This document shows, one piece after another, positions 19,183 to 59,800 of a stretch of 64,000 bases of DNA. Each line of letters opens with the position of its first letter. Positions within the stretch are counted from its first letter, which is position 1. Location: assembly GCA_031411095.1 (NCBI GenBank), contig JANOAK010000009.1:12999-76998 (forward strand), given 5' to 3'. Below the pieces are notes generated by a model. The model did no database searches, was not told where the DNA came from, and worked only from the letters and a program-made list of their open reading frames with translations. The translations under genes were made by a program, and so were the position numbers. The stretch is from Flavobacteriales bacterium (GTDB taxonomy: Bacteria; Bacteroidota; Bacteroidia; Flavobacteriales_F; PHOS-HE28).

Positions 19183-19188
19183 CTGCGC

Positions 19189-20571: not shown

Positions 20572-20572
20572 A

Positions 20573-27719: not shown

Positions 27720-27726
27720 TCGAACG

Positions 27727-29319: not shown

Positions 29320-29325
29320 AGCTGA

Positions 29326-37887: not shown

Positions 37888-38048
37888 TGGACAGCGAATT
37901 AGCTGAGGTTGAACGACCGTAGGTGGCTGTGTGGGACCCCTGCGGCGCAGGATACGCGTCCATCGGGCCGGGTGTCGCGTTCGTCGACCGAACATTTTGG
38001 CCCGTCGTTCAGTATAACGGCACCGGACCTGACCTTCCGACCTGCCTG

Positions 38049-41000
38049 ATGAACACATTCGGACCTGCATTCATGTACGCCCTTCTCAAGCCGAACCACC
38101 CACGATCGCAGCGATGGATCGCAGGCCTTATTGTGCTTTTGATGGGCCAGGTCGACCTTAAGGCGGCACCCGCCCTGGTGCAATCAAATACGGCTGTGAA
38201 TGGTGGGAATTCCTCGTCCATCACGGCCACTTACACTTCCACGCCAACGGCCGGGAACCTGCTGATCGCCATAGTTGGGAACAAGGACGTGCTAACCCTT
38301 GGTGCGCTCCCTGCGGGCTGGACGAAGGGGGTGGCGGACGAGAACAGAAGTCCGGGTCTGGTCATTCTCTACAAGATCGCGGGAGTTGCGGAGCCGTCCG
38401 ATGTCACGATCAATTATTCCGGTTCCACGCGATTGGGCTTGCAGATCTTCGAATACTCAGGTATTCCCGGGGCCACCTTGCGTCAGTTCGTCGAAACCTC
38501 AGGGTCTGGAACATCACTGGCGACGGGCACCGTCACATCGACCACGGCGGATGAGCTGATCATCACGGGCTTCACCATCGATGTTGGCACGACCTTCACG
38601 GGATGGTCCAATTCATTCACCGAGCGCACCGACGTGAACAACGGTGGTGCTCCTGCCTTCGCGGCGAGCTATGCTCTGGCCGATCGCGTGGCGACCGTAC
38701 CGGGCAGTTACCAGACCACGGCAACGGTCGGTAGTTCAGGGGCATGGCTGGGGATGATCGCACGATTTTCCTCCACTCCCAACCAGGCTTGTTTATGGCT
38801 CTCATCCAAGACCAACGCAGCTGTGCCCCCATTGAACGGTGGCATTTCATGGACGGATGGTGAAGTGGTCCAATTGTCCGACCCCAACCTGTCCTTGGTG
38901 GAACCCGGCACATCGAACGGAACATTCAGCACAATAGGGGACATCGACGACCTGGCGGGAGCGAACGAGGACATCGTGGCCATGCATTATGTGACCCGTC
39001 CAGTGACAGTGGGCACCGGGTCCAACGCGATCGCCCTTCAAATAGGCGATGTGCTTTTCTCATTGGCGGATGATGCGACCTTTTCCGGGCTGCTCGTTCA
39101 GAAGGAGGATGTCGCATTGTTCAGGCCCACGGTCCCTGGAAATTATTCAGCAGGTTCTGTGTCCATGTTATTGGACAACATGAATGGAAGGGAGATCAAC
39201 GCGATAGCCGTGGTGGAGCGCGCATGCACGGTGGGAACACAGGCCCTCAATGCCGGGGATGTGCTCGCCTCCTTTTCGGGAGATCCCTTCGACAAGAACA
39301 TCCATCGCTGCGTGATCAGTGCAGCCGGCGCCGGCGTTACCTCCGCAACGGTCACCACATTGCTCGAGGGGAGCGATATGGGTTTCGGAGGGGCGCACAT
39401 CGCGGGTCTATCCCTGGTTTGCGAAACCACTTACATCGGAGGGATCGTGCTGAATCCGGGCGCAGTGCTGCTGTCCCTGGAATCGTCGGATGCCGGTTTA
39501 GGAACGAACAACCTGCCCGTAGACAAATACGACATCTTCGCCCTTAATGTGTCCGTGGCTGAGCCGGGTGTTTCCACCGCAACGGCTATCAGGATCTTCG
39601 AGGGTGCCGATGCAGGGATCTTCTCCGGAGGAGAGGAATTTGATGCGATCAGCCTGGTCACATCGCGCAGCATCACGGGCACGGTGTACGAGGATGTGAA
39701 TTACGGTGGCGGTATTGGCCGCGATCGTTCCACGGCACTGGCCAATGGAGGTACGCGGCGTGCGAATGCCCGGGTGGAACTGTATAATGCCAGCGGGTCC
39801 TTCCTGAGCTTCACCAATACCGACGCAATGGGCCAGTACGAGTTCTCCGCTCTGCCAGCAGGAACATACACGGTGCGTGTGGTGAACAGCACGGTGAGCA
39901 GTGCGCGCGCTGGATATGTCGCGAACACACATCTGGCGGTGCAGACCTATCGCACCAATGCAAGCACAGGCGCGGTTGTCGCTGTCACCGATCGGGTGGG
40001 CGGCGAAGTGCCAGGCAAGGTGGATGCGGGAAACGGTAGTACCACGCTGGCTGCGCTGACCACGGCCTCCACCACTGCTCAGTCGGTGACCACGGTCGCC
40101 GTTGGTGCGACCGAAGTGACCAATGTCGACTTCGGCTACAGCTACAATGTGGTGGTGAACAAGAACGATGCGGGCCAGGGATCTCTGCGGCAGGTGATGA
40201 CGAACATGAACGCGTTGAGCAACGCTGGCTTGGCGATCCAGGGTCGTACGGCAGGTATCGATCATGGTGTCTTCATGCTGGCTGATGGCGTGGCACGTCC
40301 TGGCCTCACGGTGACGTATGCGACCATGTTCGTATCGGGCGCAGCGACCATCGTGCCGCTCACCCCGATGCCCTCGATCACCACACCAATGCTCTTGGAT
40401 GCGACCACACATCCTTTGTTCAGCACGGCTCCTATCATTGAGATCAACGGTACCAGTGCGGGCGCCACCACGGACGGTTTTACGCTGGCGGCGGGCAGTA
40501 CGGGCAGCACGGTCAAGGGCTTCGTGATCAACCGGTTTTTGGGCGATGGTATCCAGGTGAATGCTGGCGGCAACTTAATCCAGGGGAACTACATCGGGGT
40601 GAACGTGGCGGGGACCGCCGCGTCCGCCAATACGCTCACAGGCGTGAACATCGCGGCGTGCGCGAACAACGTGATCGGCGGTACGGCTGCGGGTCATGGC
40701 AATACGATCGCTGGCAATGGCGGAGCGGAGATCTCCATCAGTGGTGCCGCCTCCACGGGCAACCTGGTGCAGGGCAATAACATCGGTACCCGGTATAACG
40801 CGACCTCCGTCATAGCCAGTGCAGGTCAGGGCATCCTCCTGGCCAATACGGCGAGCAACAACAGCATTGGGGGCACCGTGGCCGGTGCCGGCAACGTGAT
40901 CGGGGGCAACGCGCAGGCGGGTATCGAGATCAAGGATGCCGGCACAAGCAACAACACGGTAGCGGGCAACTACATCGGTACGAACGCGAGCGATGCCGGC

Positions 41001-44000
41001 TTGGGCAACACGCTGCAGGGCGTGAAGCTCCAGTTGGGGGCAACGAACAATATGATCGGCGGTACGGTGCCGGGTGCCGGTAACATCATTGCATACAACG
41101 GCGCTCAGGGAGTGGCGCTGTTCTCCTTGACGGACATCGGCAACCGGATCCTCGGGAACTCCATCCATGACAACACCTTGATAGGCATAGACCTGGGCAA
41201 TGATGGTGTCAGTTACAACGACAATGGTGATCCGGACACGGGCCCCAATGGCAGGCAGAACTTCCCTAAGCTTACGAGCGCCACCACCCTTTCGGGCAAC
41301 ACCAGCATCACGGGCACGTTCAACAGCACATCCAACGCTACGTTCCGCATCGAGTATTTCTCGAGCCCGATCGGCGACGGCACGGGGTACGGCGAGGGGA
41401 CAACGTTCCTGGGCACGAATAACATCACGACCAACGCCGGTGGCACGGCCTCCATCAATGTCACGTTCACCGGTGTCACTGTGCCTTCAGGTTATACTGT
41501 ATGCGCCACTGCCACTAACGTCGGCACGAATAACACCAGTGAGTTCTCCGCCTTCGCCGCGGCCCCGACGGACAGCGATAACGATGGGGTCACCGACGAT
41601 GTGGACATCGACGATGACAACGACGGCATCCCCGACGATATCGAGGACCTGGGCTTCGACTCCCGTGGAGGCACGATCGCCTGTACGCAACCGGCGATGG
41701 ACTTCCAAAATCCCGTGTTGGATGCCGGTACAGCGAACACACCGGGGGCCATCTATCGCTTCACGAACGTGCTGCCCGGTATTGATGCACGGCTTTCCAT
41801 CGTGGCCATGAACAACGCCTCCCTAGTGACCGTTGATGATGGTGCGCAAGGCACTCCGGATTCCTGGCAGCCCGTGATCGACTTCACAGGCATCGGCACA
41901 CCAGGCGTCGATTTCAACATGCAGTTCGTTGTCGCTGGTACGACCACACCCCCTGCGACGGTCAGGCGGTTCGGCGGTACGACCTATGATGTGGATGGTG
42001 TGACGGACGTGGAATCATTCCTGTTCACGGCACCCTCTGTATATGCGGTGGATCAACCCACGCTGTTGGCGGCCCAGACCCTGCCGGGCGGCTTGGTGGA
42101 CATCAGTGGTGATGGCACCACGGATGGCGCCGGCATCAGCAGTGATCCACGATACCGGGGCTACTTCCAATATAAGAACACGAACCAGTTCAACTTCCGG
42201 TGTCAATTCAAGCGGACCACGGCGGGCACTACCCAGCGCTACTTAAGCCTGCGTTTCAACGAGTGTTTCCTGAACGACCTCATCAATGTGCAACTGTTCA
42301 TCGTGGATGGCCTGGACACGGATAACGATGGCGTACCGGACTACCTTGATCTGGACAGCGACAACGACGGCATTTACGACGTGGTGGAGGCAGGCTCGGG
42401 CCAGCCGCAGACCAACGGGATATTGAACGGGGGCGTAAGCACTTCGGGCCTGAAGGTCTCCGTGGATGCGAACCTGAACAATGCCATCGACTATACGCTT
42501 CGGGATTCAGATGGTGACAACAATTACGACGGTGTTGAACTGGATTCGGATGGTGACGGCTGTTTTGATGTCACGGAAGCCGGGTTCATCGACCAGAACG
42601 CGGACGGGCGACTGGGCAACGACCCCGTCCTTGTGAACGGAAGGGGGGTCGTCACCTCCGGTTCCGGAGGATACACCACACCTGCTGATGTGAACGCGAA
42701 TTCGGTCTATGACTACCGCGAGGACTCTAGCATCGCCATGAGTTGTCCTGGGAACATCACAGTTACGACCGGAGCGGGCCAGTGCACGGCGAACGTAACG
42801 GTCCCGGCACCACTGGTCACCTCGGCTTGCCGTGGGTATGCCATTGTAAACTCCTTCAATGGTATAAGTGACGCATCCGGTGCCTATCCCATTGGCATAA
42901 CGACGGTGAATTTCATTGTGACCGATGCCACAGGCGGATCCGCGGCCTGCTCGATGACCGTCACCGTGAATGATGTTCAAAGTCCGACCATCAGCTGCCC
43001 TGCCAACGTCAATGTGAACGCTAGCGCTGGACAATGTTCGGCAAGTCCCGTGGCCTTGGGTTCGCCCATCGCCACGTATGGTTGCGATGTGGCCACCATC
43101 ACCAATAACGCCCTTGTGAGCTATCCTGTTGGCACCACTCCCGTTACCTGGACACTGAGCACCGAGGACATTCCCGGTTATCTGGCTCCCGCGCTCATTC
43201 CCTCCTGTGTACCGTCGAATGCATTTCCCGGTCCGGTGAACAGTACCGGCGGTAGCATCACCCTGTCAAGTTCAACGGCCATTTACAACACGGTGGCCAA
43301 CGCGCTTACCACACCCAGCATGAACGGCTCAGCTTCTGCACTCTGCGACGGCATGACCTGTGCCGCCAACGGGGCTACAGCTTCCACATTGACCGTAACT
43401 CCAGGCTTGGGAACCGGTGTTCATGGTGCGTTGAATTTGGGCACCACCATCAGTGCGAACCGGCAGTACACTTCCGTGAACATCCCGAATGATGGACTGC
43501 TCACGGTTAACGGAAACCGCATCATTCGTTGCCAGGGCACGTTCCAGATGGGCACCAACACAACGCTCTCCATCAATGGTGACGTGGTGATCCACGCGAA
43601 TGATTTCAATGCGGACAATGACTTCAACATTAACGTGGTGAGCGGAAGTCTGGTGATCATTTCGGGCAATGACTTCAATGTCGGGAACAGGGCGCGGTTC
43701 ACGGCCCCAACGCCGACCGATCTGCTCGTCCTGTCTGCGGATGACATCTCGATCCAGGTGGATTTCATCGGCAAGGCCATGCTCTATGCAACGGATCGCG
43801 TGCAATTCTGGCCGAACTCCGTTCTGTACGGCGCCATGACCGGCAATAACGTGCAGGTGCTCCCCGATGCCACGGTATTTGGACTCGCATCCGGCTATTA
43901 CTGCCTACCGACCTACCTCGATCCCCCGCAGATCATCAATAACTTCAGTGCTGCTACCAACTCCATCAGTTATCCGGAGAATGCTACGAGCGTTTTGATC

Positions 44001-45233
44001 GACCTTCAGACCGATGACAACCTCAGCAGCGAGGCCAGTGGGTTGACCTATTCGCTCACCGGACCGGATGCTGGCGACTTCGCGATCACCGCGACCACCG
44101 GGGTCCTCAGCTTCGCCGCCACTCCCAACTATGAGGCACCGGCCGATGCCAACCTCGACAACGTATACCAGATAACGGTGACGGTAACGGACATCGATGG
44201 CTTCACGGATGCGCAGGCCTTCACGATCACCGTTACGAACGTGGCCACGCAGACCGGGACTTGCGTCCAGAACATTACGGTCGTGGATGCACAGCCCCCC
44301 ACGATCAGTTGCCCCGCCAACATCACTGTTCCAGCGGCCGCTGGGGCATGCACCGCCACTGTGACGTATGCTGCACCTGTGGGCACGGACAATTGTTCGG
44401 GTTCCACCACGGTGCGGATCGCAGGTCCCGCCAGCGGTAGCGTGTTCCCCCTGGGTACCACCACGATAACGCACCGGGTGACGGACGCAGCGGGCTATAC
44501 CGCGCAGTGTTCCTTCACGGTGACCGTGACCGATACACAGAACCCCACGATCAGCTGCCCGGCGAACATCACGGTGAACGTGGATCCGGGATCGTGCTCG
44601 GCGGTGGTGAACTATGTTGCGCCGGTCGGTACCGACAATTGCTCGGGCGCCACCACGGTGCGCATCGCAGGACCTGCGAGCGGCTCCACATTCGCTCCGG
44701 GTGTTACAACGATCACGCATCGTGTGACCGATGGGGCGGGCAATACGGCCACCTGCAGCTTCACGGTAACGGTGATCGCAGGGAACGATAACGACGCCGA
44801 TGGGCTGTGCGACAATGTGGACCTGGATGATGACAACGACGGATTGCTCGACGTGACGGAAGGGGGTGCAGCGTTGGACACTGACGGTGATGGCGTACCG
44901 AACCGCTTCGACCTGGACAGCGATAACGACGGCATCTACGACTGTGTGGAGTCCGGTTCCGGACAGGCATTCACGGCCGGTGTGTTGAACGGTGGCATCA
45001 CGGCGAATGGCATCCCGGTATCGGTGGATGCGAATGCGAACAACGTGGTGGACTACACGATCCGCGACAGCGATGGGGACGGCACGATCGACAGCTTGGA
45101 ACTGGACGCCGATGCGGACGGTTGCAATGATGTGATCGAAGCCGGATACACCGACGCGAACAGCGATGGTCGACTGGGTCCCGCACCGCTTACGGTGAAC
45201 GCCCGGGGTGTAGTGACATCCGGGGGGCCTTGA
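38049..45233 (+). CDS. Giant modular surface protein 1. Modules: variable head; SdrD-B-like; parallel beta-helix; TSP3-like Ca module A; HYR and cadherin-like domains; TSP3-like C-terminal module B. No T9SS CTD.
   Basis: ORF 37923..45233; signal-peptide-like start at 38049/38073. Motifs: YEDVNYGGGIGRD (SdrD B), [10 protein letters not shown] beta-helix turns, DxDxDG Ca loops, ISCPANITV...[12 protein letters not shown] units. Confidence 0.8.
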   Translation: MNTFGPAFMYALLKPNHPRSQRWIAGLIVLLMGQVDLKAAPALVQSNTAVNGGNSSSITATYTSTPTAGNLLIAIVGNKDVLTLGALPAGWTKGVADENRSPGLVILYKIAGVAEPSDVTINYSGSTRLGLQIFEYSGIPGATLRQFVETSGSGTSLATGTVTSTTADELIITGFTIDVGTTFTGWSNSFTERTDVNNGGAPAFAASYALADRVATVPGSYQTTATVGSSGAWLGMIARFSSTPNQACLWLSSKTNAAVPPLNGGISWTDGEVVQLSDPNLSLVEPGTSNGTFSTIGDIDDLAGANEDIVAMHYVTRPVTVGTGSNAIALQIGDVLFSLADDATFSGLLVQKEDVALFRPTVPGNYSAGSVSMLLDNMNGREINAIAVVERACTVGTQALNAGDVLASFSGDPFDKNIHRCVISAAGAGVTSATVTTLLEGSDMGFGGAHIAGLSLVCETTYIGGIVLNPGAVLLSLESSDAGLGTNNLPVDKYDIFALNVSVAEPGVSTATAIRIFEGADAGIFSGGEEFDAISLVTSRSITGTVYEDVNYGGGIGRDRSTALANGGTRRANARVELYNASGSFLSFTNTDAMGQYEFSALPAGTYTVRVVNSTVSSARAGYVANTHLAVQTYRTNASTGAVVAVTDRVGGEVPGKVDAGNGSTTLAALTTASTTAQSVTTVAVGATEVTNVDFGYSYNVVVNKNDAGQGSLRQVMTNMNALSNAGLAIQGRTAGIDHGVFMLADGVARPGLTVTYATMFVSGAATIVPLTPMPSITTPMLLDATTHPLFSTAPIIEINGTSAGATTDGFTLAAGSTGSTVKGFVINRFLGDGIQVNAGGNLIQGNYIGVNVAGTAASANTLTGVNIAACANNVIGGTAAGHGNTIAGNGGAEISISGAASTGNLVQGNNIGTRYNATSVIASAGQGILLANTASNNSIGGTVAGAGNVIGGNAQAGIEIKDAGTSNNTVAGNYIGTNASDAGLGNTLQGVKLQLGATNNMIGGTVPGAGNIIAYNGAQGVALFSLTDIGNRILGNSIHDNTLIGIDLGNDGVSYNDNGDPDTGPNGRQNFPKLTSATTLSGNTSITGTFNSTSNATFRIEYFSSPIGDGTGYGEGTTFLGTNNITTNAGGTASINVTFTGVTVPSGYTVCATATNVGTNNTSEFSAFAAAPTDSDNDGVTDDVDIDDDNDGIPDDIEDLGFDSRGGTIACTQPAMDFQNPVLDAGTANTPGAIYRFTNVLPGIDARLSIVAMNNASLVTVDDGAQGTPDSWQPVIDFTGIGTPGVDFNMQFVVAGTTTPPATVRRFGGTTYDVDGVTDVESFLFTAPSVYAVDQPTLLAAQTLPGGLVDISGDGTTDGAGISSDPRYRGYFQYKNTNQFNFRCQFKRTTAGTTQRYLSLRFNECFLNDLINVQLFIVDGLDTDNDGVPDYLDLDSDNDGIYDVVEAGSGQPQTNGILNGGVSTSGLKVSVDANLNNAIDYTLRDSDGDNNYDGVELDSDGDGCFDVTEAGFIDQNADGRLGNDPVLVNGRGVVTSGSGGYTTPADVNANSVYDYREDSSIAMSCPGNITVTTGAGQCTANVTVPAPLVTSACRGYAIVNSFNGISDASGAYPIGITTVNFIVTDATGGSAACSMTVTVNDVQSPTISCPANVNVNASAGQCSASPVALGSPIATYGCDVATITNNALVSYPVGTTPVTWTLSTEDIPGYLAPALIPSCVPSNAFPGPVNSTGGSITLSSSTAIYNTVANALTTPSMNGSASALCDGMTCAANGATASTLTVTPGLGTGVHGALNLGTTISANRQYTSVNIPNDGLLTVNGNRIIRCQGTFQMGTNTTLSINGDVVIHANDFNADNDFNINVVSGSLVIISGNDFNVGNRARFTAPTPTDLLVLSADDISIQVDFIGKAMLYATDRVQFWPNSVLYGAMTGNNVQVLPDATVFGLASGYYCLPTYLDPPQIINNFSAATNSISYPENATSVLIDLQTDDNLSSEASGLTYSLTGPDAGDFAITATTGVLSFAATPNYEAPADANLDNVYQITVTVTDIDGFTDAQAFTITVTNVATQTGTCVQNITVVDAQPPTISCPANITVPAAAGACTATVTYAAPVGTDNCSGSTTVRIAGPASGSVFPLGTTTITHRVTDAAGYTAQCSFTVTVTDTQNPTISCPANITVNVDPGSCSAVVNYVAPVGTDNCSGATTVRIAGPASGSTFAPGVTTITHRVTDGAGNTATCSFTVTVIAGNDNDADGLCDNVDLDDDNDGLLDVTEGGAALDTDGDGVPNRFDLDSDNDGIYDCVESGSGQAFTAGVLNGGITANGIPVSVDANANNVVDYTIRDSDGDGTIDSLELDADADGCNDVIEAGYTDANSDGRLGPAPLTVNARGVVTSGGP
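39660..42760. repeat. About 3.1-kb segmental duplication copy 1 (paired with 46860..49960), about 85-90% nt identity
   Basis: e.g. 40141 GCTACAATGTGGTGGTGAACAAGAACGATGCGGGCCAGGG vs 47338 GCTACAACGTGGTGGTGAACAAGAACGATGCGGGCCAGGG; collinear over SdrD-B/beta-helix/TSP3 region. Confidence 0.7.
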
Positions 45234-45518
45234 GCATCAGTTCCTTGCCCGCTCGATCCGAACGCCACAGTCACAAAGGATACTTTACGTCAAACGCTAG
45301 AGCGCCAGACGGTTAGTGGCGATAGGGCATGAATGATGGTCGGGTTGGCGCAGGATGGCCCCCTTGATCCGATCGTCGTTCGGATGGCCAAGAGCCATTC
45401 GTCGGCCGAACCAATTGCCTCGTCGATAGGTACAAGGGTCCGGAACTGACCTCCGACCTACGGTATGTACACCGGCGACCGCATCGTATCCACCTTCAAG
45501 CATGCCCTGCATCATCAC

Positions 45519-48500
45519 ATGATGGTCACGGGCATCCTCCGCTTTATCGGGGTGATGATGCTGTCCTTCAGCTTGACCCATTCGGATGGTCAGGCTCCCG
45601 TCCTGGATCCTTCCAAGAGCCCGACGCTCGCGGCAGTGAATGAGGATGCAGGCGCGCCAGTGGGAGCTGTGGGCACGCTCGTTTCGAGCCTTGTCGATCC
45701 CACGGTCCCATCGGGCCAGTTGGATAACGTAGCGGATCCGGATCCCGGAGCCTTATTGGGCATCGCCGTGATGGGTGCCAATACGAGCAACGGCACCTGG
45801 CATTATTCCATCAACGGTGGAACGAACTGGTTGCCCTTGGGCGTTGTGAGCGATGCGAATGCCCGACTATTGGCCGCAGACCTGAACACACGGCTGTACT
45901 TCCAGCCCAACGCGAATTACAATGGTACACTGGCCAATGCCATCACCTTCCGCGCATGGGATCAGACGGCTGGCACGAACGGCGGCCTTATGGCCGTGCC
46001 GGGCGGTGCATTGACCATTCTCGATGATTGTGACGTGTCGTCATACAGCAACAACGACGGCTCTCAGAACTGGGCCGGTGATTGGGCGGAGAATGACAAT
46101 GGTGGAGGTGGGTTCAGCGGTGGGGACATCGATCTGCCTGCACCTTTCTTGCGATTCAGGCCGAGCCAGGTCGGTGAATGGCTTTATCGCGAAGCGGACC
46201 TGCAAGGGGCGACCAGTGCGACACTTTCATTTGACCTGATCTACAATATCATTAATCCGGGTGGTCAAGTACAGGTGCAGATCTCCGACAATGGAGGTTC
46301 CACCTATACCACATTGTCCACCATTACGAATGCCACGCCGTTGGGCGTCCTGAGCTACAACATCACCGCCTTCGCATCGTCGAATACGCGTTTCAGGTTG
46401 TACGCTTCAGCGGCCAGTATTAACGGGATCCGCCTGGACTATGTGCGCGTCGATCTCACCAGGACGGGCGGATCCGCATCAGCCTTCTCTTCGTCAACAG
46501 ATGTGGCCGGTATGGTCGTGGGTCCGGTCGCCGACACCCCCTCCATCACCAATGCGAGCACGAACGAGGACACGCAGACCACCAGCGGCCTGGTGATCTC
46601 GCGGAACATCGTGGACGGTGCGGAGGTGACGCATTTCAAGATCACGGGCATCACCAACGGAACGTTGTTCCTGAATGATGGCGTAACGCCGGTCACCAAC
46701 GGCACCTTCGTCACCTTCGCCCAAGGCAATGCGGGATTGCGTTTTACCCCTGCGTACAACTTCAGCGGGAATGGCAGTTCCACCATCCAGGCCTCCGTAT
46801 CGAATGTCGACGCCGGGCTCGGTGGAAGCACGGCTACCGCTACCATCACCGTGACAGGTCAACCCGATCTGCAGGGCATCGTTTTCGAGGATATGAACTA
46901 TGGTGGAGGATCCGGACGGGATCGGGCCACGGCGATCGGCGGTGGCGGTTCGGTACGGCAGAACGCGCGGGTAGAACTGTACAATGCCACCGGTAACTTC
47001 ATTTCGTCAACATTGACCGATGCCAGTGGACTCTATACGTTCGACCTTCTGACGATCGGCACATACACGGTGCGCGTGGTGAACAGCACCGTGAGCAGTG
47101 CGCGGGCGGGCTTTGTGGCCAATACGCACCTGGCTGTGCAGACCTATCGCACCAGTGCGAACACAGGCTCGGTGGTGGCGGTATCGGATCACGTAGGAGG
47201 TGAAGTGCCTGGGAAGGCTGACGCGGGCAATGGCAGCACCACGCTTGGCGCACTGACCACGGCCACGACCACGGCCCAGAGCATCACCTCCGTGAACTTG
47301 GGCACTGCGAACGTGACCAACGTCGACTTCGGTTTCAGCTACAACGTGGTGGTGAACAAGAACGATGCGGGCCAGGGTTCGCTTCGTCAGGTGATGACGA
47401 ACATGAACGCGTTGAGCAATGCGGGCCTGGCCATCCAAGGGCGCACGGCAGGCATCGATCACGGTGTCTTCATGCTGGCAGATGGCGTAGCGCGTCCGGG
47501 CCTCACGGTGACGTATGCGACCATGTTCGTATCTGGAGCGGCGACCATCGTGCCGCTCACGCCGCTGCCCTCGATCAGCACACCGATGGTGCTGGATGCG
47601 ACCACGCATCCCCTGTTCAGCTCAACTCCCATTCTGGAGATCAACGGGGCCAGCGCCGGTGCGGCCACGGACGGGTTTACCTTGGCGGCGGGCAGCACGG
47701 GCAGCACCATCAAGGGCTTTGTGATCAACCGCTTCCTGGGCGATGGCATCCAGGTGAACGCCGGAGGCAGCTTCATCCAGGGGAACTACATCGGAGTGAA
47801 CGTGGCGGGATCGGCGGCATTGGCCAATGCGCTCACGGGAGTCAACATCAACAACGTGGGAACCACCACGATCGGAGGCGCGGCCGCGGGCCAGGGCAAC
47901 ACCATTGCGGGCAACGGGGGTGCTGAGGTACAGATCAACGGTGCCTCGGCTCTGAACAACACGGTGCAGGGCAACATGATCGGCGTGCGTTTCAACGGCA
48001 CCACGGTGATCCCCAGTGCGGGTTCCGGCGTGGTCGTGAGCGGCGGGGCCGACGGCACCCTGATCGGTGGGAACGTCGCCGGTGCCGGGAACATCATCGG
48101 GGGCAATGCCCTTACGGGGGTGGACATCAGGGATGCAGGTACAACGACCACGACCGTGTCGGGGAACCACATCGGAACGAACGCCTCGGATGCTGACCTC
48201 GGCAACACTCAGCAGGGCGTGAAGTTCTCGAACGGGACCACGGCGAATGTGATCGGAGGGACCTTAGCCGGCAGCGGGAACACGATCGCATGGAACGACA
48301 TGCAGGGGATCGCTTCCATCACGGGCACAGACGCCGGCAATCGGTTCCTGGGGAACTCCATCCATGACAACAGCTTGTTGGGGATCGACCTGAACAACGA
48401 TGGGGTGACATACAATGATCCCGGAGATGCGGATACGGGCCCCAACGCCAAGCAGAACTTTCCCAAGCTCACAGGAGCGAACACGGTCGGTGGCAACACG

Positions 48501-51356
48501 ACGATCACCGGCACCTTCAACAGCACATCGAACACCACCTACCGCATCGAGTACTTCTCCAGCCCGATCGGAGATGGCTCCGGATATGGCGAAGGCACGG
48601 CGTTCCTGGGCACGAACAACATCACGACCAACGGAAGTGGGAACGCCACGATAAACGTGACCTTTCCGGTCACTGTGCCCTCGGGACATGCGGTGTGCGC
48701 GACCGCGACGAACCTGACGACCAACAACACGAGCGAGTTCTCGGCCTTTGCCCAGGCACCCACCGACAGCGACGTTGATGGTGTAACGGATGACATCGAC
48801 ATCGACGACGACAACGACGGGATCCCGGACGACATCGAGGACCTGGGCTTCGACTCGCGTGGGGGCACGATGGCCTGCACGCAGCCGGCGATGAACTTCC
48901 AGAACCCGGTGCTGGATGCCGGCACGGCCAACACACCCGGTGCGGTGTACCGCTTCTCGAACGTGATCCCGGGGATCGACGCCCGCCTCAGCATCACAGC
49001 CATGTCCAACGCATCGATCGTGACGGTGGATGATGCCGCGCTGGGTACCCCCGACTCGTGGCAACCGGTGATCGACTTCACGGGCATCGGCACGCCAGGG
49101 ATAGACTTCAACATGAGCTTCGTGCTTGCCGGCACTACCACGCCAGCCGCAGGGATCACGCGCTTTGGCGGAACGACCTATGATGTGGACGGAACGGGCG
49201 AGGTGGAATCATTCCTGTTCACCGCGCCCTCAGTGTATGCGGTGGACCAACCATCGCTACTAGTGTATCAGACGCTTCCGGGCGGCTTGGTGGATATCAG
49301 CGGCGATGGTACAACGGATGGTCCCGGCATCAGTGGCGATCCGCGCTATCGGGCCTATTTCCAATACAAGAACACCAACCAGTTCAACTTCCGCTGCCAG
49401 TACAAACGGACCACCACTGGCACCACACAACGCTACCTGAGCCTTCGCTTCAATGAATGCTTCCTGAACGACCTGGTGAACGTGCAACTCTATATCGTGG
49501 ATGGCCTTGATACGGATGGCGACGGTGTGCCTGATTACCTGGATGTGGACAGCGATAATGATGGCATCTACGATGTGGTGGAGGCGGGCTCGGGCCAGCC
49601 GCAGACCAACGGCGTGTTGAACGGGGGCGTTACCACATCAGGATTGAAGGTCTCCGTGGATGCGAACCTGAACAATGCCATCGACTACACCCTGCGCGAT
49701 TCCGACGGTGATAACACCTACGACGGGGTGGAGCTGGATAGCGACAACGACGGCTGCCGGGACGTGTGGGAAGCGGGCTTCACCGACAACAACGGAGACG
49801 GCCTCCTCGGCAACATGCCGTTGATCGCCAACAACAGCGGCAAGGTCACCACCGGAACGGATGGTTACACCACACCTGCTGACCAGAACTCGAATGGTGT
49901 ATATGACCATCGCGAGGTATTTGCGATGAGCATGACCTGTCCGGCGAACATCAGCATACCCGCAGGTGCCGGTGTATGCACGGCGGCCGTCACGGTTCCG
50001 GCACCCACGGTGTTCGGTGCTTGTGGTGGGTTCACCCTCACCAACAGCTTCAACGCCACGGCCAATGCCTCCGGCACCTATCCCAAAGGCGCCACCACGG
50101 TGACCTTCACAGCCACGGATCTCATGGGGAACACGTTGACGTGTTCAATGACGGTGACGGTGAACGACACGCAATTGCCGCAGATCACCTGCCCGGCGAA
50201 CATCGCCGTGAACAATGACCCAAGTGTTTGTGGGGCAGCGGTGACCTATGTCGCTCCCGTTGGCACGGACAATTGCTCGGGCGCCACCACGGTACGGATC
50301 GCCGGTCCGGCCAGTGGTAGCGTGTTCCCGGTTGGAACCACAACGGTCACACATCGCGTTACCGACGGCAATGGAAGCACAGCGCAATGCTCCTTCACCG
50401 TAACAGTGAGCGACACCCAGCTGCCGCAGATCACATGCCCGGCGAACATTGTGATGAACAATGATCCAGGAGTGTGTGGTGCAGCGGTCACCTACGCGGC
50501 CCCTGTAGGCACGGACAATTGTCCGGGCGCAGCCACGGTACGCATCGCAGGGCCCGCCAGCGGCAGCGTGTTCCCGGTGGGCACCACCACGGTCACACAT
50601 CGCGTAACGGACGGCAGCGGTAATTCAGCACAGTGCTCCTTCACGGTCACGGTGAACGACGTTCAGAACCCCTCCATCTCGTGCCCGGCGAACATCGCCG
50701 TGGGCAGCAGCCCTGGCATCTGCGGGGCCGTGGTAAGCTATGTGGCACCGGTAGGGACGGACAATTGCGCGGGCATCGCCACCGTGCGGATAGCGGGTTT
50801 GGCCAGTGGCGCCACCTTCCCGCCCGGTACCACAACGGTCACTTATCGCGCCTCAGATGCTTCGGGCAACACGGCGCAATGCAGCTTTACGGTCACGGTG
50901 ACGGCCGCGGACAACGATGGCGATGGCGTGTGCGACAATGTGGACCTGGACAACGACAACGACGGAATATCGGATGCGGCGGAAGGTGGGGCAGCGTTGG
51001 ACACGGATGGCGATGGTGTACCGAACCGCTTCGACCTGGACAGTGATAACGACGGCATCTATGATTGCGTGGAGTCGGGATCGGCTCAACCGTTCACGGC
51101 CGGTGTGCTGAACGGTGCCGTCATCGCGAACGGGATTCCAGTATCGGTGGATGCCAACGCGAACAACGTGGTGGACTACACGATCAACGACAGCGATAGC
51201 GACGGAACGATCGACAGCCAGGAATTGGATGCGGATAATGACGGCTGCACGGATGTGATCGAGGCCGGCTTCATGGACACAAATGGCGACGGTGTGCCTG
51301 GCAACGCGCCGGTGACGGTGAATGGGAATGGGCTGGTGACCAGTCTCACCCCTTGA
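45519..51356 (+). CDS. Giant modular surface protein 2. Same core as protein 1 with a different head. Module order: SdrD-B-like; beta-helix; TSP3-like module A; 3 HYR; TSP3-like module B. No T9SS CTD.
   Basis: ORF 45465..51356; signal [19 protein letters not shown] at 45519; shares module order with gene 1. Confidence 0.8.
46860..49960. repeat. About 3.1-kb segmental duplication copy 2
   Basis: See copy 1. Confidence 0.7.
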
Positions 51357-51559
51357 GTGCTGCGGTTGGTGATCGGTATGCGTTGACCGATGATAGGGCT
51401 GGTGGACCGGCCGGATTGGAACAACCAAGGCCAGGAACATACGTAAGAGCCTATCATATGTCGGGCTCCCCCTTGGCTATTGATATGGCACGAAGCCGGC
51501 GACGCAGCAGCTCACCTGCGTCGCTCCCTATGATTTTGAACAGGGGATCGCCCCTGAAC

Positions 51560-53596
51560 ATGATCCGGAGCGCCGCGTCCGTGCGGGCCCTGCCCATGCT
51601 GTTGCTTGTCATTACCGCCCTTCCCATGGCGCTGCGCACGCAGGGGCAGACCAGCACCATCCGATTCAACGACGTGGTGAAGGGCGGCGTGGCCATGATC
51701 GGTAATTCGCATTACCTGCAATCCTCCGACTTCGACATCCCGGATCCTTCGATCGTCAACGACGTCGACGGTGATCCGTCGACCAGTATCTCCACCTCCG
51801 CGGACCTCATCCTGCCGGCGAACTCAACCATTGTGTACGCCTATCTGACGGTGGAAACCGGGTTTGAGAGCACGCCGGGGGACATGACCAGCGTGAAATT
51901 CCGGGTACCGGGAGGTGCGTACATCACCCTCACCAACGCATCCACCCAGTTCCTCGCCGTGCGCAGTGTGAACGACCCGGGCACCCGGAAATACCGGCAG
52001 ATGATATTCGACGTCACCGCCCTGGCCCCCGCCTCAGGCTATGTGAGCGTTGCTGGTGGCGGTGCCGCCGGCAGGTACTTCGTGGCCGACCCGACCCCCA
52101 ACTACCCGGTGGATCAGCGCACCAACATGGGTGGCTGGTCGCTGATCGTCGTCTACCGGAACGCCAGTTCGATCAACCGGAGCGTGGTGGTGGCGGATGG
52201 CTGGCGGTTCTTCGACAGCAATGGCGAGTCGGTGGATACCGACATCCCCAATGTGCGCATGCCGAACTCCGGAACCGTGACGGCAACGGTGGGGCTTACC
52301 GGTACCTACGGCGATCCCGCGCTAGCCGGCTATTGCCCTGGATGCACCGACTACCTGTCATTTGGTATTGCTGGAGGGGCGCTCACCGACCTCGCGGATC
52401 CGGTGGCCGGCACTACTACCGACGTGTTGAACTCCACCATCGGCTGGGCTCCGAACAACGATGTCAGCACGGACGGCGGTCCGGCCATCAGTGGGAACTA
52501 CACGGCCCGGGCGCCTTCCAGCGGGTTCACCCCCGCCAACTATGCGCCTGTCGGCAGCCAGGGATCCGCGCAGTACGACTCGGACATCTTCTCGGCCAGT
52601 GGCTTGCTCCCGGCGGACGGTTCGTTGCGCACTGTGCGTTTGCGGCAGCGATCGGTAGGCAGCGATTGGTTGGTATCGGGTTCGTACTTCATATCCGTGG
52701 AGACCGTGGTGGCCAACCTGGAACTGGGCATTGCTCCGGCGACCATCGTGGATGGGGGAACGGCCACGTATACATACACCATCAACAATTCCTTCCCCGG
52801 CGCGATCGACCAGACCGGGTTGAGCTTCACGAACACCCTGCCTGCTGGGATCGTCATCGCCCCTGTCCCGAACGCTATGATATCCTGTGGCGGAACCTTG
52901 GCCGCTGCGGCCGGGAGCAACCAGGTGGTCGTTTCGGGGGTGGACCTGAACAACGGTCAGAGCTGCACGATCACGGTGGATGTGACCAATGTGGCAGGGC
53001 AGGTCAATCCGGATTGCAGCGGCCTTCCTCTGGCCTTCACCAATGGCGTGGGGGACTTCAGCGGTTCGAACAACCTGGCCACCAGTGTCGGATCCATATG
53101 CCTGGAAGTGGTGGTGGATCCCTGTGATGCGATCGCATCCGGGAACCCCGATAACGATGGCGACACGGTCGCTGACCTCTGCGACCTTGACGATGACAAC
53201 GATGGCATACCCGATACCGCAGAAGGCGGAGATGCGCTGGACACCGATGGTGACGGGGTGGCGAACCGCTTCGACCTGGACAGCGACAACGACGGCATCT
53301 ACGATTGTGTGGAATCGGGTTCGGCACAGGCCTTCACGGCCGGTGTGTTGAACGGAGCGGTCACCGCGAACGGAATACCGGTTTCAGTGGATGCGAACGC
53401 GAACAACGTGGTGGACTATACGATCCGCGACAGCGATGCGGACGGAACGATCGACAGCCGGGAACTGGACGCTGACGGCGACGGTTGCCCCGATGTGATC
53501 GAAGCGGGATACACCGATGCCAACAGCGATGGGCGATTGGGGAATGCACCGCTTACGGTGAACGGTAACGGCGTAGTGACATCGGGTAACAACTGA
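51560..53596 (+). CDS. Large surface protein 3. Modules: variable head; DUF11-like domain; TSP3-like C-terminal module B. No T9SS CTD.
   Basis: ORF 51353..53596; signal [29 protein letters not shown] at 51560; C-terminal 150 aa about 80% identical to C-termini of proteins 1 and 2. Confidence 0.75.
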
Positions 53597-53871
53597 ACGT
53601 GATGCCTTCCGGGATCATCCATACACATCTGCCAGAGAACGGGTCAACTGCGCTACCTGCCGAGGAGCGTGCTGGCTACCGCATGGATGGACACCCATCG
53701 GACCAGGACCGGTCACGCGTGGCTGAACGCCCCGGACGGACCCTCTATTTCGATCGCCGGACGACGGCCGCAACCCGACCAGTGGAACCCTCTGGCCGGA
53801 ATACCGTACAAACGGAACGCATGGCGCCATGTAGCTCTCTCAACTCACTGGTAACCAGGCTTGAAGAAACG

Positions 53872-56800
53872 ATGAATTGGAATCGGATCTGTGCTTTCTT
53901 CCTTCGGGGAACTGGTCGTAGGATCATGTCCCCGGGGTCATTTGCTGCCTTGGTCGCGCTGTTTTTCGGCGTGGCCAGTGCGCAGGCACAGAATGGATAT
54001 ACCACGCCGGCGGATGCGAACGGAAACAGCATCTACGACTTTCAGGAGGCCACCACCCTGGCCATTACCTGTCCAGCGAATGTCACCGCGACCAATGCGC
54101 TGAACACATGCGGAGCTGCTGTTGTGGTCCCCGCACCATCCGCTTCAGGATATTGTGGATCATACACGCTGACGAACAGTTTCAACGGCACAGCCAACGC
54201 CTCCGGTACCTACCCTGTGGGTGTCACCACGGTGACATGGACCGCAACCGACCCACGAGGTCAAACGGCGAGCTGTTCCATGACCGTTACGGTAACCGAT
54301 ACACAGCTGCCCGCGATCACCTGCCCGGCGAACATCACGGTAGGCAATGATGCCGGTGTATGCGGTGCCGTGGCGAGCTATGTGGCCCCTGTGGGTTCGG
54401 ATAACTGTCCAGGAGCGACCACCGCGCGCATTGCTGGTCCTGCGTCGGGCAGCCTTTTCCCGAACGGGACGACCACGGTCACCCACCGTGTGACGGACGC
54501 TGCGGGCAACACGGCACAATGCTCCTTTACCGTTACGGTGAATGACACCCAGTTGCCGGTCATCACGTGCCCAGGCAACATTGTGGTGAGCAACGATCCA
54601 GGCGTTTGTGGTGCTACGGTGAGCTATGCCCCGCCGGTAGGCACGGATAATTGCCCGGGTCCGGTCACTGTGCGGACCGCAGGTCTTGCCCCAGGAAGCC
54701 TGTTCCCATTGGGCACGACGACGATCACCTACCGAGTGACTGATGCTGCGGGGAACATTGCACAGTGTTCGTTCACCGTTACCGTGAATGACACACAGGT
54801 CCCCACGATCACATGTCCCGCCAACGTAGCGGCCACCACCAACACCGGCTGCACAGCCACCGGCGTAGCGCTCGGAACACCCACCACCGCCGACAACTGT
54901 GGTGTGGCCACGGTGACCAACAACGCGCCTGCGGCCTTCCCGCTGGGTATCACCACGGTCACATGGACGGTGACGGACAACAGCGGTAACACCGCCACCT
55001 GCGCACAGACGGTGACGGTAACGGACAACGTGAACCCCACGATCACCTGCCCGGCCAACGTTTCCGCCACGACGAACACCGGTTGCACCGCGACGGGTGT
55101 TGCCCTCGGCACGCCGGTGACCAATGACAACTGCGGTGTGGCCTCGGTGACCAACAACGCGCCTGCGGCCTTCCCACTGGGCGTGACCACCGTTACCTGG
55201 ACCGTGACCGACAACAGCGGACGCACGGCGACGTGTACCCAGACCGTAACGGTAACGGACAACGTGAACCCCACGATCACCTGCCCGGCCAACGTTTCCG
55301 CCACGACGAACACCGGTTGCATCGCGACGGGTGTTGCCCTCGGCACGCCGGTGACCAACGACAACTGCGGTGTGGCCTCGCTGACCAACAACGCGCCTGC
55401 GGCCTTCCCGCTGGGCGCGACCACCGTTACCTGGACCGTGACCGACAACAGCGGTCGCACCGCCACCTGCGCACAGACGGTAACGGTGACGGACAACGTG
55501 AATCCCACGATCACCTGCCCGGCCAACGTAGCCGCCACGACCAACACCGGCTGCACCGCCACCGGTGTTGCCCTCGGCACACCGGTGACCAACGACAACT
55601 GCGGCGTGGCCTCGGTGACCAACAACGCGCCTGCGGCCTTCCCGTTGGGCGTGACCACCGTTACCTGGACCGTGACCGACAACAGCGGTCGTACGGCCAC
55701 CTGCGCACAGACGGTGACGGTGACCGACAACGTGAACCCCACGATCACCTGCCCGGCCAACGTTACCGCCACGACGAACACCGGATGCACGGCTACGGGT
55801 GTTGCCCTCGGCACGCCGGTAACCAACGACAACTGCGGTGTGGCCTCGGTGACCAACAACGCGCCTGTGGCCTTCGCGCTGGGCGTGACCACCGTTACCT
55901 GGACCGTGACCGACAACAGCGGCCGCACCGCCACCTGCGCACAGACGGTGACGGTGACGGACAACGTGAATCCCACGATCACCTGCCCGGCCAACGTAGC
56001 CGCCACGACCAACACCGGCTGCACCGCCACCGGTGTTGCCCTCGGCACACCCGTGACCAACGACAACTGCGGCGTGGCCTCGGTGACCAACAACGCGCCT
56101 GCGGCCTTCCCGTTGGGCGTGACCACCGTTACCTGGACCGTGACCGACAACAGCGGTCGTACGGCCACCTGCGCACAGACGGTGACAGTGACCGACAATG
56201 ATGCTCCCATTGCCGTATGCCAACCCGCGACCATTGGTCTGGATGGTTCCGGCATCGCTACGCTGACCGCCGCGGATGTGAACGGCGGCAGCACCGACAA
56301 CTGCAGCATCGCCTCCATAAGCGTGGTGCCGAACACCTTCAACGCCGTAGGCACATACACCGCGACATTGACCGTGACGGATGCGGCAGGCAACAGCAGC
56401 ACCTGTACCGCCACGGTGACGGTGACCGACAGCCAGCCACCAGTGGCCATTTGTCAGAACATCACCATCAACCTGAATGCTGGCGGTACCGTCACCATCA
56501 CTGCTGCGCAGATCGACGGAGGAAGCACGGACAATGGCACGATCACCTCGTTGGTCGCCTCCCAGACGAACTTCGATTGCACCGATCTCGGCCCCAACAA
56601 TGTCACCCTCACCGTTACCGATGATGGCGGCAACACGACGCAGTGCACGGCCGTGGTCACTGTGCAGGACATCATCGCGCCGGCGGCCATTTGCCAGAAC
56701 GCAACGATCTACCTCGACGGTGCCGGAAATGCGAGCATCGCCGCAGCTGATCTGAACAATGGCAGCACGGACAATTGCTCGATCGCCACCATCATCGCAA

Positions 56801-59800
56801 GCAAGAACGACTTCACCTGCGCAGACCTTGGAGCGAACGTGGTCACCGTCACCGTGACCGATCAGAGCGGCAATGGCACCAACTGCAATGCAACGGTGAC
56901 CGTCGTCGATGATATCGACCCGACCATCACATGCCCCGCCACCGTGAATGCCACCACCAATTCGGGTTGCACCGCCACGGGCGTCAACCTCGGAGTGCCG
57001 GTCACGGCCGACAATTGCAGCGTGGCGAGTGTCTCCCACAATGCGCCCGTAGCCTTCCCGATCGGCAGCACCACGGTCACCTGGACGGTGACGGATGGCA
57101 GCGGGAACACGGCCACCTGCACCCAGACGGTGATCGTGACCGATAATGTGCCGCCAACGATCACCTGCCCGGTCAACGTTAGCGCCAACACGAACAGTGG
57201 ATGCACGGCCACCGGGGTGAACCTGGGAACACCTGTCACCAATGACAACTGCGGTGTGGCCACTGTCTCGAACAATGCACCCGCCGCGTTCCCCTTGGGC
57301 AATACGGCAGTGACATGGACCGTGGTCGACAACAGTGGCAATACGTCCACTTGTGTTCAGACCGTGACCGTGGTCGACAATGGCTCGCCTTCGATCAGCT
57401 GTCCGCCCCACGTGAACACCACCACCAACAGTGGCTGTACGGCCACGGGTGTCAATCTCGGCGTGCCCATCACCAGCGATAATTGCAGTGTTCTCAGCGT
57501 GACCAACAACGCACCGGTGGCCTTCCCCTTGGGGACCACCACGGTCATGTGGATCGTGATGGACAACAGTTCCAATGGAGCCACGTGCATGCAGAGCGTA
57601 ACGGTCACGGACAACGTGCCGCCCACGATCACCTGCCCTGCTGCGGTGAACGTGAACACCAACAGTGGTTGCACCGCAACAGGCGTTGCACTAGGCACTC
57701 CGACGACCGCGGATAACTGTGGTGTGGCCAGCGTTACCAACAACGCACCCGCTGTGTTCCCCATCGGCAGCACCACGGTCACCTGGACCGTCACCGACAA
57801 CAGTGGTAACTCATCGAATTGCGCACAGACCGTCAACGTCACGGACATCACACTCCCCACGATCACCTGTCCCGCGAACGTCAGTGTTGGCACCAACAGT
57901 GGCTGCACGGCCACGGGAGTTGCCCTCGGCACGCCGGTGACCAACGATAACTGCGGTGTAGCCTCCGTGACCAACAACGCACCCGCGGCCTTCCCGTTGG
58001 GCGCGACCATCGTCACCTGGACAGTGACCGACAACAGCGGTAACCTGGCCACCTGCACACAGACCGTGACGGTGACCGACAACGTAGCTCCCACGATCGC
58101 CTGCCCACCGACGGTCAACGCCACAACGAACAGCGGTTGTACCGCAACGGGCGTGAACCTCGGCATACCTGTTACGAACGATAACTGCGGCGTTTCGAAT
58201 GTGGTCAATGATGCACCCGCTGCATTCCCGCTCGGCAGTACGACCGTGACCTGGACGGTAACGGACAATGCCGGTAATACGACGAGTTGCACACAAACGG
58301 TCAACGTACTGGACGATGTTCCGCCCGTAGCGGTCTGCCAGGCGGTCACCCTGTTCCTCGATGGCACGGGAAGTGTCGGTCTGGCAGCCAGCGCCGTGGA
58401 TAACGGCAGCAGCGACAACTGCGGCATTGCCAGCCTGAACGTGTCGCCCAATAGCTTCAATGCAGTGGGCACCTACACCGCGACGCTCACCGTGGTGGAC
58501 AATAGTGGCAACAGCAGCACCTGCACGGCCCTTATCACCGTGAATGACCTCGTTCCGCCGGTGGCCGTGTGCCAGCCTGTGACGATCTACCTCGATGGCA
58601 GTGGCAACGCGACGATCGTGGCCGGCGACATCGACGGCGGATCAACCGATAACGACGCCATCGCCAGCCTGGTCGCATCACAAACGAACTTCGATTGCAG
58701 CAATACGGGAGATAACAACGTGACCCTTACCGTAACGGATGACGGTGGCAATACGGCCAGCTGCGTGGCTGTCGTTACGGTGCTGGATACGATCAGGCCG
58801 AGCGTGGTTTGCAACGGCGTAACGGTGTCGCTGAACAACTTCGGCAGTGTGACCATCGATCCGGCGGATGTTGCTATGGCCACCACCGACAACTGTGGGA
58901 GCGGACCGTTGACCTTCAGCACAAGCGACAGCACGTTCATCGCTGTAGGCAGCTACACCGTGTGGGTGTATGTGATCGACGAAGCAGGCAACATCGACAG
59001 CTGCCAGGCAGTGGTTACGGTGAACGACCTGAACCCGCCGGTGGCGATCTGCCAGCCTGCGACGATATACCTGGACGGCAGCGGTAACGCGAGCATCACA
59101 CCGGCGGACATCGACGGTGGCAGCACCGACAACGGCACGATCGTGAGCATCACGGCAAGCCAGACGAACTTCGACTGCACGAACACGGGTGCGAACACGG
59201 TAACGCTGAGCGTAACGGATGACGGTGGCAACACCAGCACCTGCGACGCGGTGGTGACGGTACTGGATACCATCGCACCGGTAGCGGTTTGCCAGAACAT
59301 CACGGTGGCCCTGGACGGCAGCGGCAACGCGAGCATCGTGGCATCGGACATCGACGGAGGTAGCAGCGACAATTGTGCAGGCTTCACGCTGAGCGTGAGC
59401 CAGGCCATCTTCGACTGCAGCATGACCGGCGCGAACACGGTGACCCTGACGGTGACCGATGCCAGCGGTAACGTGAGCACCTGTGATGCCACCGTGACCA
59501 TCGAGGACAACACGATCCCAACGGTGGTGTGCAATGATGTGACGATCAACATGGATACCAACGGCTGGGCGGTGATCAATGCCAGCGCGATGGCCACGGC
59601 CACCACGGACAACTGTGGCGGTGGAACGCTTGAGTATACCACGAGCGTGGACAGCATCAATGTGGTGGGTACGCAGACGGTGTGGGTGTATGTGCAGGAT
59701 GCCAGCGGCAACATCGACAGCTGTTCCGCCACGGTCACCGTTACGGACCTGAACCCGCCGACGGCGATCTGCCAGGCTGCGACGATCTACCTCGACGGAA

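Follow-up and report, generated by a model that had tools for sequence, protein, structure and literature searches.

Type IX secretion system (T9SS) cargo is defined by a C-terminal domain (CTD) on every exported chain. For cargo with a type B CTD, export and anchoring by PorP/SprF proteins are established, and the adhesin SprB binds SprF (PMC9143113). SprC moves along the same track as SprB (PMC12635249). We analyzed a window of 64,000 nucleotides from a Flavobacteriales bacterium (contig JANOAK010000009.1, positions 12,999 to 76,998), a Bacteroidota contig of ~61% guanine plus cytosine (GC) that holds additional T9SS cargo and a second PorP/SprF locus. Four co-directional genes in this window encode proteins 1–4 and are followed by a PorP/SprF gene from 63184. 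Proteins 1–3 (heads) lack a CTD and end in a shared module of Asp-rich calcium loops, and protein 4 (stalk) has a type B CTD. As judged from the sequences, the chain of head, module, loop, stalk and CTD is cut here, to the residue, before the last Ca loop of the module. Such a division of one module between heads without a CTD and a stalk with one, precise, recurrent and conserved, appears not to have been described.

Heads, stalk and the loop between them

Proteins 1 (38073..45233), 2 (45519..51356), 3 (51560..53596) and 4 (53821..63171) are encoded on the plus (+) strand, as are the other elements of this region described below. The open reading frame (ORF) of protein 1 opens at 37923 with a likely start at the M of 38073. 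Protein 2 has an alternative start at 45465, the start of protein 3 at 51560 is likely, and protein 4 has candidate starts at 53821, 53872 and 53926. Read by eye, each head has a plausible Sec signal peptide of its own with a predicted Gln at +1, cut between '..LLMG' and 'QVDL' in protein 1 and between '..THSDG' and 'QAPV' in protein 2. Protein 1 contains SdrD_B-like, beta-helix, HYR and cadherin-like domains. The head of protein 3 contains DUF7933 and a weak, sub-threshold match to DUF3344. In Pfam and NCBIfam scans, proteins 1–3 had no match to the type B models CHU_C or TIGR04131, and their C-termini had none to a type A CTD (TIGR04183/PF18962), in agreement with the original prediction, made from the sequence alone, that all three are CTD-less. 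The sole type A match was internal and sub-threshold (protein 1 residues 614–657, 21 bits vs a cut-off of 23) and overlaps SdrD_B.

The T9SS adhesin and the PorP/SprF protein that were said to lie next to these genes are both supported by profile matches. The signal peptide of protein 4 is cut between 'AQA' and Q before 53989. It is followed by ~17 HYR/Ig-like repeats and by a type B CTD at 62905-63162, with matches to PF13585 (CHU_C; E 7e-24, residues 3103–3183) and TIGR04131 (E 9e-14). The PorP/SprF-family outer-membrane protein (63184..64000) runs off the window. Its PF11751 match (E 1e-75) at 63184-63999 spans profile positions 2–249 of 273, and protein 4, through its type B CTD, is presumably anchored by this outer-membrane protein.

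A C-terminal block of about 80% identity had been reported on the three heads. A tblastn search with the tail of protein 3 found five copies in the window, three terminal and two internal. The terminal matches lie at 44859-45224 in protein 1 (90%), 50910-51344 in protein 2 (83%) and 53102-53593 in protein 3 (E ≤1e-65), and the internal ones, of ~65% identity, at 42306-42665 in protein 1 and 49500-49856 in protein 2. The module is therefore not solely C-terminal, since an additional copy lies inside protein 1 and another inside protein 2. The alignment delimits a core of 121 amino acids with about six DxDxDG or DxNxN loops. The cores align without gaps, and the three terminal copies are 81–88% identical in pairs, so that the reported block holds. 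The earlier length of ~150 amino acids had counted one additional upstream pair of thrombospondin type 3 (TSP3)-like loops; in protein 1, such loops precede the terminal module from ~44787. A complete module is found internally in protein 1 (42306..42668), and in protein 2 an internal module (49500-49862) is followed by a loop (49863-49916), giving a unit of 49500..49916. The terminal modules of proteins 1 (44868..45230), 2 (50991..51353) and 3 (53231..53593) are one loop short and end in '..VVTSGGP', '..LVTSLTP' and '..VVTSGNN', respectively. The stop codon comes 0–1 residue after the module in each head, even closer than the ~5 residues first proposed.

The heads had been described as unrelated to each other, which is true only of the head of protein 3, distinct over its entire length. 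Proteins 1 and 2 have 1189 amino acids in common at 75% identity (protein 1 563–1746 vs protein 2 449–1633), and their last 340 amino acids are 72% identical. They differ only in their first 450–560 amino acids and in an insert of protein 1.

The loop lacking from the terminal modules is found at the beginning of the stalk. The internal copies read '..VVTSGSG-GYTTPADVNANSVYDYRE-HYR', and in protein 1 the stretch GYTTPADVNANSVYDYRE, the last Ca loop of the full module, lies directly 3' of the internal module (42669..42722). The terminal copies halt at '..VVTSGxx', and mature protein 4 opens with QNGYTTPADANGNSIYDFQE-HYR. This mature N-terminus (53989..54048) is the proposed docking element. Residues 1466–1813 of protein 2 and 132–475 of protein 4 are 66% identical, and their alignment begins at the loop. 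According to the Bacteroidetes Q-rule, Gln stands at +1 after signal peptide cleavage (PMC5837995); the Gln of protein 4 fits this rule, by which two residues precede the loop in the mature protein.

The GYT loop belongs to the module rather than to the stalk. In Bacteroidota, the stretch directly after an internal module commonly reads 'DGYTxPxDxDxNxx(Y/F)D(F/Y)(Q/R)E', and in other genomes this loop comes after the module irrespective of the next domain, be it HYR, another Ig-like domain or a further module. Comparison by hhalign places the GYT loop in half B of the module at the position of the terminal loop of half A. Furthermore, the loop is ordered together with the module in an AlphaFold2 (AF2) model of protein 1 residues 1445–1696, covering module, loop and first HYR domain (mean predicted local distance difference test (pLDDT) 84, predicted template modelling score 0.75). 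The module (pLDDT 93–96) and the loop (92–96) are modelled mostly as non-regular structure with short helical turns. When the mature N-terminus of protein 4 was modelled alone, the loop had a pLDDT of 59–64 and the HYR domains 88–98, which fits a loop ordered by the module rather than by the stalk. A Foldseek search of the model against the PDB matched the Ig-like HYR part and nothing else.

Read-through or frameshifting that would join proteins 3 and 4 is rejected, because the two genes are in different frames and are separated by a signal peptide and by ~390 nt that contain no module sequence (53594-53989). Split-intein or sortase-type ligation is rejected as well: no such motifs were noticed, and the N-terminal Gln of the stalk is expected to cyclise.

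Family and distribution of the module

The shared block represents a single copy of a Ca2+-loop module (DxDxDG/EF-hand type) that is widespread in giant extracellular proteins and internally duplicated. The two halves of the module align as a tandem duplication (hhalign probability 98.6%, E 1e-15). Pfam and NCBIfam models do not recognise it. The 25-bit threshold of TSP3 (PF02412) is reached neither by protein 3 (16.9 bits) nor by the module alone (10.4 bits), and the window copies match TSP3 models below threshold, with E of 0.005–0.56. Dockerin (PF00404) gave no match for proteins 1–3 at E ≤0.01 or for the module alone at E ≤1, and no cohesin was found in Pfam scans of proteins 1–4 and ten further ORFs of the window. 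The Pfam EF-hand models do not match the module. Read directly, however, several module loops fit the 12-residue EF-hand pattern D-x-[DN]-x-[DN]-G-x-x-D-x-x-E, and the stalk loop DANGNSIYDFQE fits it except at position 6 (S). A PDB sequence search found no solved structure related in sequence to the module; the best match, to the EF-hand protein Calaxin, was marginal (E 0.05).

A profile of the module was searched against 1.84 billion representative proteins (clusters at 50% identity). It matched 7247 of them at E ≤1e-3 and 979 at E ≤1e-30. The top matches are giants of 1100–7300 amino acids with a median of five near-complete copies. The module defined here is thus a common repeat, present in >7000 such clusters and outside the coverage of Pfam and NCBIfam. 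In a GTDB survey with one genome per species, the best 79 loci came mostly from Flavobacteriaceae, Saprospiraceae, Cytophagales and Chitinophagales, and also from Cyanobacteria, Gammaproteobacteria and one Myxococcales metagenome-assembled genome. The module in these loci is nearly always internal, with 130 to >1000 residues after it, and often forms arrays of up to 19 copies per protein. Among the 61 complete module-bearing ORFs, 34 have a CHU_C type B CTD in cis, two have a type A CTD, four have RTX repeats and several have a GlyGly-CTERM-like tail. The usual Bacteroidota protein is a single chain of head, module, 'GYTxPxDxNxNxxYDFxE' loop, Ig-like stalk and type B CTD. Judged by these contexts, the module is a general extracellular Ca-loop unit that in Bacteroidota usually stands in cis with a type B CTD.

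Other ends were seen on some of these proteins. Arrays outside Bacteroidota (L030, L036, L055, L061, L064, L070, L075, L078) end in RTX nonapeptides or in 'GGC + hydrophobic stretch + RRR' tails, which are similar to GlyGly-CTERM. The module is therefore found in combination with several systems of secretion or anchoring. Six Flavobacteriaceae module proteins without CHU_C (L003, L012, L017, L018, the second ORF of L077 and one more GTDB locus) end in '..V(I/V)TNRRIT(Y/H/F)RV(K/H/N)K(N/D/E/S)' after an Ig-like 'YQWQ' domain. This end may represent a C-terminal signal not recognised so far.

Homologues of the protein 3 head elsewhere, of 38–59% identity, differ in what stands at the position of the module. 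P0353–P0356, from other Bacteroidota, have a type A CTD there (Por_Secre_tail confirmed on two), and P0337 has a terminal module. Six others (P0339, P0341, P0345, P0349, P0350, P0352), several of them named Chryseobacterium, have a conserved end domain of ~90 amino acids, '..GMMV(F/Y)D..CLKIYT..W.CF.TQ.CP', with a precomputed Pfam match to PF26696 on four of the six. This end domain may be another C-terminal targeting domain. Since the same head carries a CTD, another end domain or the module, the module occupies the position of an export or anchoring domain in its relatives.

These type A CTDs, together with a C-terminal location like that of CTDs within a T9SS type B locus, could suggest that the terminal module is itself an unrecognised export or anchoring signal, read by the translocon or binding PorP/SprF or lipopolysaccharide through Ca2+. 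The original prediction had raised such a sorting signal, which the distribution does not support. The module is internal in most proteins, with up to 19 repeats in one, and is found in Cyanobacteria, Gammaproteobacteria and Myxococcales, all without T9SS, so that it is not a T9SS-specific signal. In addition, no CTD model matched, the AF2 model shows loops and not the beta-sandwich of a CTD, and the N-terminal loop of the stalk would be left unexplained. We regard such a signal as highly improbable. The prediction had also said that a mainly internal position in unrelated proteins, away from T9SS genes, would speak against a docking role. About half of that picture was found: the module is mainly internal, occurs in unrelated giants and extends to phyla without T9SS.

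Recurrence and constraint of the split

Contigs encoding module-terminal proteins were fetched through protein-search matches. The homologue search behind these matches yields proteins of up to ~1.75x the query length, that is, fragments and short genes and not full-length giants. The end of the module is the end of the protein in 12 of 116 matches to the extended module. The split recurs in nine further metagenome loci from eight distinct organisms (L001, L081, L083, L084, L085, L087, L089, L090, L091). The stalk N-termini of L084 and L087 are identical, and the two loci probably come from one organism. Seven loci (L001, L081, L084, L085, L089, L090, L091) have one to three genes ending in '..VTS' plus three residues, followed by a loop-first stalk gene, which encodes a signal peptide, 'QNGYTTP(A/D)Dx(N/D)(G/N)Nx(I/V/T)YDFQE' and HYR, with CHU_C wherever the end of the gene is reached. 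Each locus has one to three head genes with their own Sec signal peptide and no CTD, ending at the module short of its last loop. One of the three heads of L085 has an LTD/fn3 head. The stalk gene is the last of the series in all loci chosen through module-terminal proteins (L001, L081, L083–L085, L089–L091). Conversely, L087 was chosen through a loop-first protein, and a module-terminal gene lies upstream of it. In L083 (48% GC), gene 1 ends in '..GRVTSGGL' and gene 2 encodes a signal peptide followed by SQGYTTPADLNGNGTPDYLE. The split is the same, and the stalk is of a different, non-HYR Ig-like type, from a divergent lineage. Two contigs are too short to show a stalk: L088 (35% GC) stops 144 nt past the stop codon, and in L092 the next gene is another head, after which the contig ends.

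Frameshift-like fragmentation of some L001 genes might point to an artefact of assembly or gene calling, with one long gene broken by sequencing errors. However, the stops share one codon position across assemblies made independently (NCBI, ENA and JGI) and are followed by 200–500 nt of non-coding sequence and a new signal peptide. In the window itself, proteins 3 and 4 are in different frames, and the sequence between them shows no module-like coding potential. An artefact is barely credible.

Two observations concern the surroundings of the heads in these loci. A TPR-SpoIIE phosphatase, DUF6272 and SiaC lie 5' of the heads in related loci (L084 1-1046; L085 3105-6587; L087 1-386) and look like partner-switching regulation; this set is absent 5' of protein 1 in the window. 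In L001, on the minus strand at 17690-20339, a 1093-residue ORF with gag_pre-integrase and RVT_2 (Ty1/copia-type retrotransposon) is found on an otherwise bacterial contig. The L001 assembly may be chimeric.

Both halves of the split are under constraint. Between paralogues and between loci, the terminal modules have dN/dS of 0.08–0.19 with dS of 0.7–1.5, values of old copies kept by selection and not of recent conversion. Among nine loci, identity averages 88% in the 20-residue stalk loop, compared with 50% in the next 80 amino acids and 25% in the signal peptide. On contigs of the same genus, defined by a tryptophanyl-tRNA synthetase in the same 90% cluster, only the last 266 amino acids of the protein 2 counterparts keep 75–80% identity, and the remainder is rearranged and 35–50% identical. 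By these comparisons, the heads are variable and their ends conserved. What the sequences show directly is the architecture, the fact that it recurs, and the constraint on each half.

Variable heads could also be cassettes. Recombination at the boundary of module and loop would then fuse a head to the stalk, as in phase or antigenic variation, and separate genes would be the stored or 'off' state. Several heads do lie 5' of one stalk, HYR and module repeats are common to several genes, and head content differs greatly among close relatives. However, the DNA similarity of the three terminal copies in the window, ~82–83% (≤83% among module copies), breaks off at the stop codon, and with dS of 0.7–1.5 it shows no recent conversion. 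All heads have intact ORFs with signal peptides of their own, proteins 3 and 4 have nothing in common that is usable as a recombination substrate, and neither a recombinase nor inverted repeats were noticed at the junctions. The fused state was found in none of ten loci. We consider cassettes improbable, by a shade less than the export signal discussed above.

Proposed docking of the heads and comparison with known systems

From this architecture, we infer a physical association of heads and stalk, its dependence on Ca2+ and an export route for the heads. The stalk would leave the cell via T9SS by its type B CTD and would stay on the surface by its PorP/SprF partner, as is established for type B cargo. 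The C-terminal module of a head, one loop short, would bind the N-terminal loop of the stalk, restoring a complete Ca-bound module. EF-hand subdomains are known to reassemble non-covalently from separate chains, as in calbindin D9k (PMC7674454). A single stalk would display alternative, fast-evolving heads, and these would travel out with the stalk or be captured on it. We give roughly even odds to docking by Ca-dependent fragment complementation, a mechanism proposed from sequence comparison. The docking module with a common attachment partner that had originally been suggested is upheld in part. It gains from the exact split at the loop, the nine further loci, the constraint on both halves and the type A CTD of the protein 3 head homologues. 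The partner is neither PorP/SprF nor a cohesin; instead, the N-terminus of protein 4 is proposed.

A more tentative proposal concerns export. T9SS transports folded proteins (PMC9251779), which makes passenger export conceivable. The CTD-less heads may assemble on the Ca loop of the stalk in the periplasm and pass T9SS as passengers, although we find this doubtful at present. If true, it would be the first hitchhiker-type export in T9SS. Large CTD-less proteins would reach the surface via a CTD-bearing partner, and secretome predictions based on CTDs would miss them. The result would be a plug-in adhesin whose fast-evolving tips are exchangeable, leaving the stalk, the CTD and the PorP/SprF anchor untouched. 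The 20-residue loop and the 121-residue module would form a compact natural protein-protein connector, probably Ca-switchable, which could help surface display in Bacteroidota.

Several points weigh against docking and passenger export. No precedent was found in the literature for T9SS export of CTD-less partners. The stoichiometry of three heads to one loop is unexplained, and pyroglutamate at the N-terminus of the stalk might affect docking. An N-terminal end effect could account for the low pLDDT of the loop when protein 4 is modelled alone. Most recurrences come from one high-GC clade (57–64% GC) and are not fully independent. Finally, a counter-example was found in L082 (38% GC), where a terminal module is followed by an MscS channel gene and not by a stalk.

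A terminal module without an adjoining stalk gene, as in L082, is what would be expected if the module were only a Ca-stiffened spacer and the split a neutral relic of gene fission, with proteins 1–3 independent, either in the periplasm or exported by some other route, and never rejoining protein 4. The mostly internal module, its arrays, its spread over many phyla and its RTX, GlyGly-CTERM-like, type A and type B contexts agree with this explanation too. However, a relic loop should decay, yet the loop is the best-conserved part of the N-terminal region of the stalk (88% vs 50%). The break point is identical to the residue in divergent lineages, and strong purifying selection acts on the terminal modules even as the heads diverge. 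It is not evident what use giant adhesin-like proteins without a CTD would have if they were confined to the periplasm, and elsewhere a CTD is found on the same head of protein 3. We hold the spacer or relic to be unlikely, though the least unlikely of the alternatives. Each of the four explains less of the evidence than an adhesin split into heads and a stalk that dock.

Other features of the window are described here. A conserved non-coding element, CGACCAGTGGAACCCT...CGTACAAACGGAACGCATGG (53776..53820), lies in the gap between proteins 3 and 4, ~170 nt 5' of the stalk signal peptide. It is common to L001 and L081, and partly to L089 and L090, and could serve as a promoter, operator or leader. 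A scan for sigma-70 promoters and terminators gave background level only, with sigma-70 models that are ill-suited to Bacteroidota. Within protein 4, six tandem 234-nt HYR repeats of 90% identity lie at 54801-56198, and more arrays at 56968-58190 and 61446-62584. The length of the stalk is probably variable. An aminotransferase (36685-37887) lies 5' of protein 1. The second type B locus (23709-30327) encodes a protein with 12 PKD repeats and a CHU_C CTD (23709-27719), a PD40/TPR protein (27697-29319) and PorP/SprF (29326-30327). Between 16000 and 22000, the GC content dips to 0.53–0.56 vs ~0.61 elsewhere. Three consecutive type A CTD genes (16768-19182, 19189-20571, 20522-21967) lie in this low-GC stretch, which may be an acquired island.

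Several known systems resemble parts of this locus. Thrombospondin/COMP type 3 (PF02412) and bacterial TSP3 (PF18884) share the Asp-rich DxDxDG loops and little secondary structure, and some module homologues have precomputed Pfam matches to these families. However, TSP3 models do not describe the duplicated unit of 121 amino acids with its 'VSVDANxNN..DY' and 'GYTTPAD' loops. EF1 and EF2 of calbindin D9k are likewise paired Ca-binding loop units that reassemble from separate chains. That reconstitution is an experimental dissection and not a natural split (PMC7674454), and the module differs in having no EF-hand Pfam match and little helix in its model.

The closest functional analogue would be cohesin-dockerin. 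In both, a duplicated Ca-loop module stands at the C-terminus of otherwise different cargo, and the cargo would dock non-covalently on a cell-surface scaffold, with several cargos per type of receptor. In contrast, Pfam scans found no Dockerin_1 match in proteins 1–3 and no cohesin in proteins 1–4 and ten further ORFs of the window. The host here is a diderm with a T9SS-exported scaffold, and docking is proposed from sequence. Furthermore, the receptor proposed here is an N-terminal loop of 20 residues, and in homologues this loop and the module form one covalent chain, which would make this a case of fragment complementation and not of binding between two independent folds.

In gene order, the locus resembles sprC-sprD-sprB-sprF of Flavobacterium johnsoniae, in which CTD-less accessory genes lie upstream of a giant adhesin with a type B CTD and a PorP-like gene lies downstream. 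No split of module and loop has been reported for that operon, and no similarity of proteins 1–3 to SprC or SprD was seen, although no search aimed at it was made. In domain order, it resembles the single-chain type B adhesins of Flavobacteriia, Saprospiraceae and Cytophagales, which have the same module, 'GYTxPxDxNxN..DFxE' loop, Ig-like stalk and CHU_C CTD. Those adhesins are one polypeptide, whereas here the chain is divided between CTD-less head genes and a stalk gene that begins with the loop.

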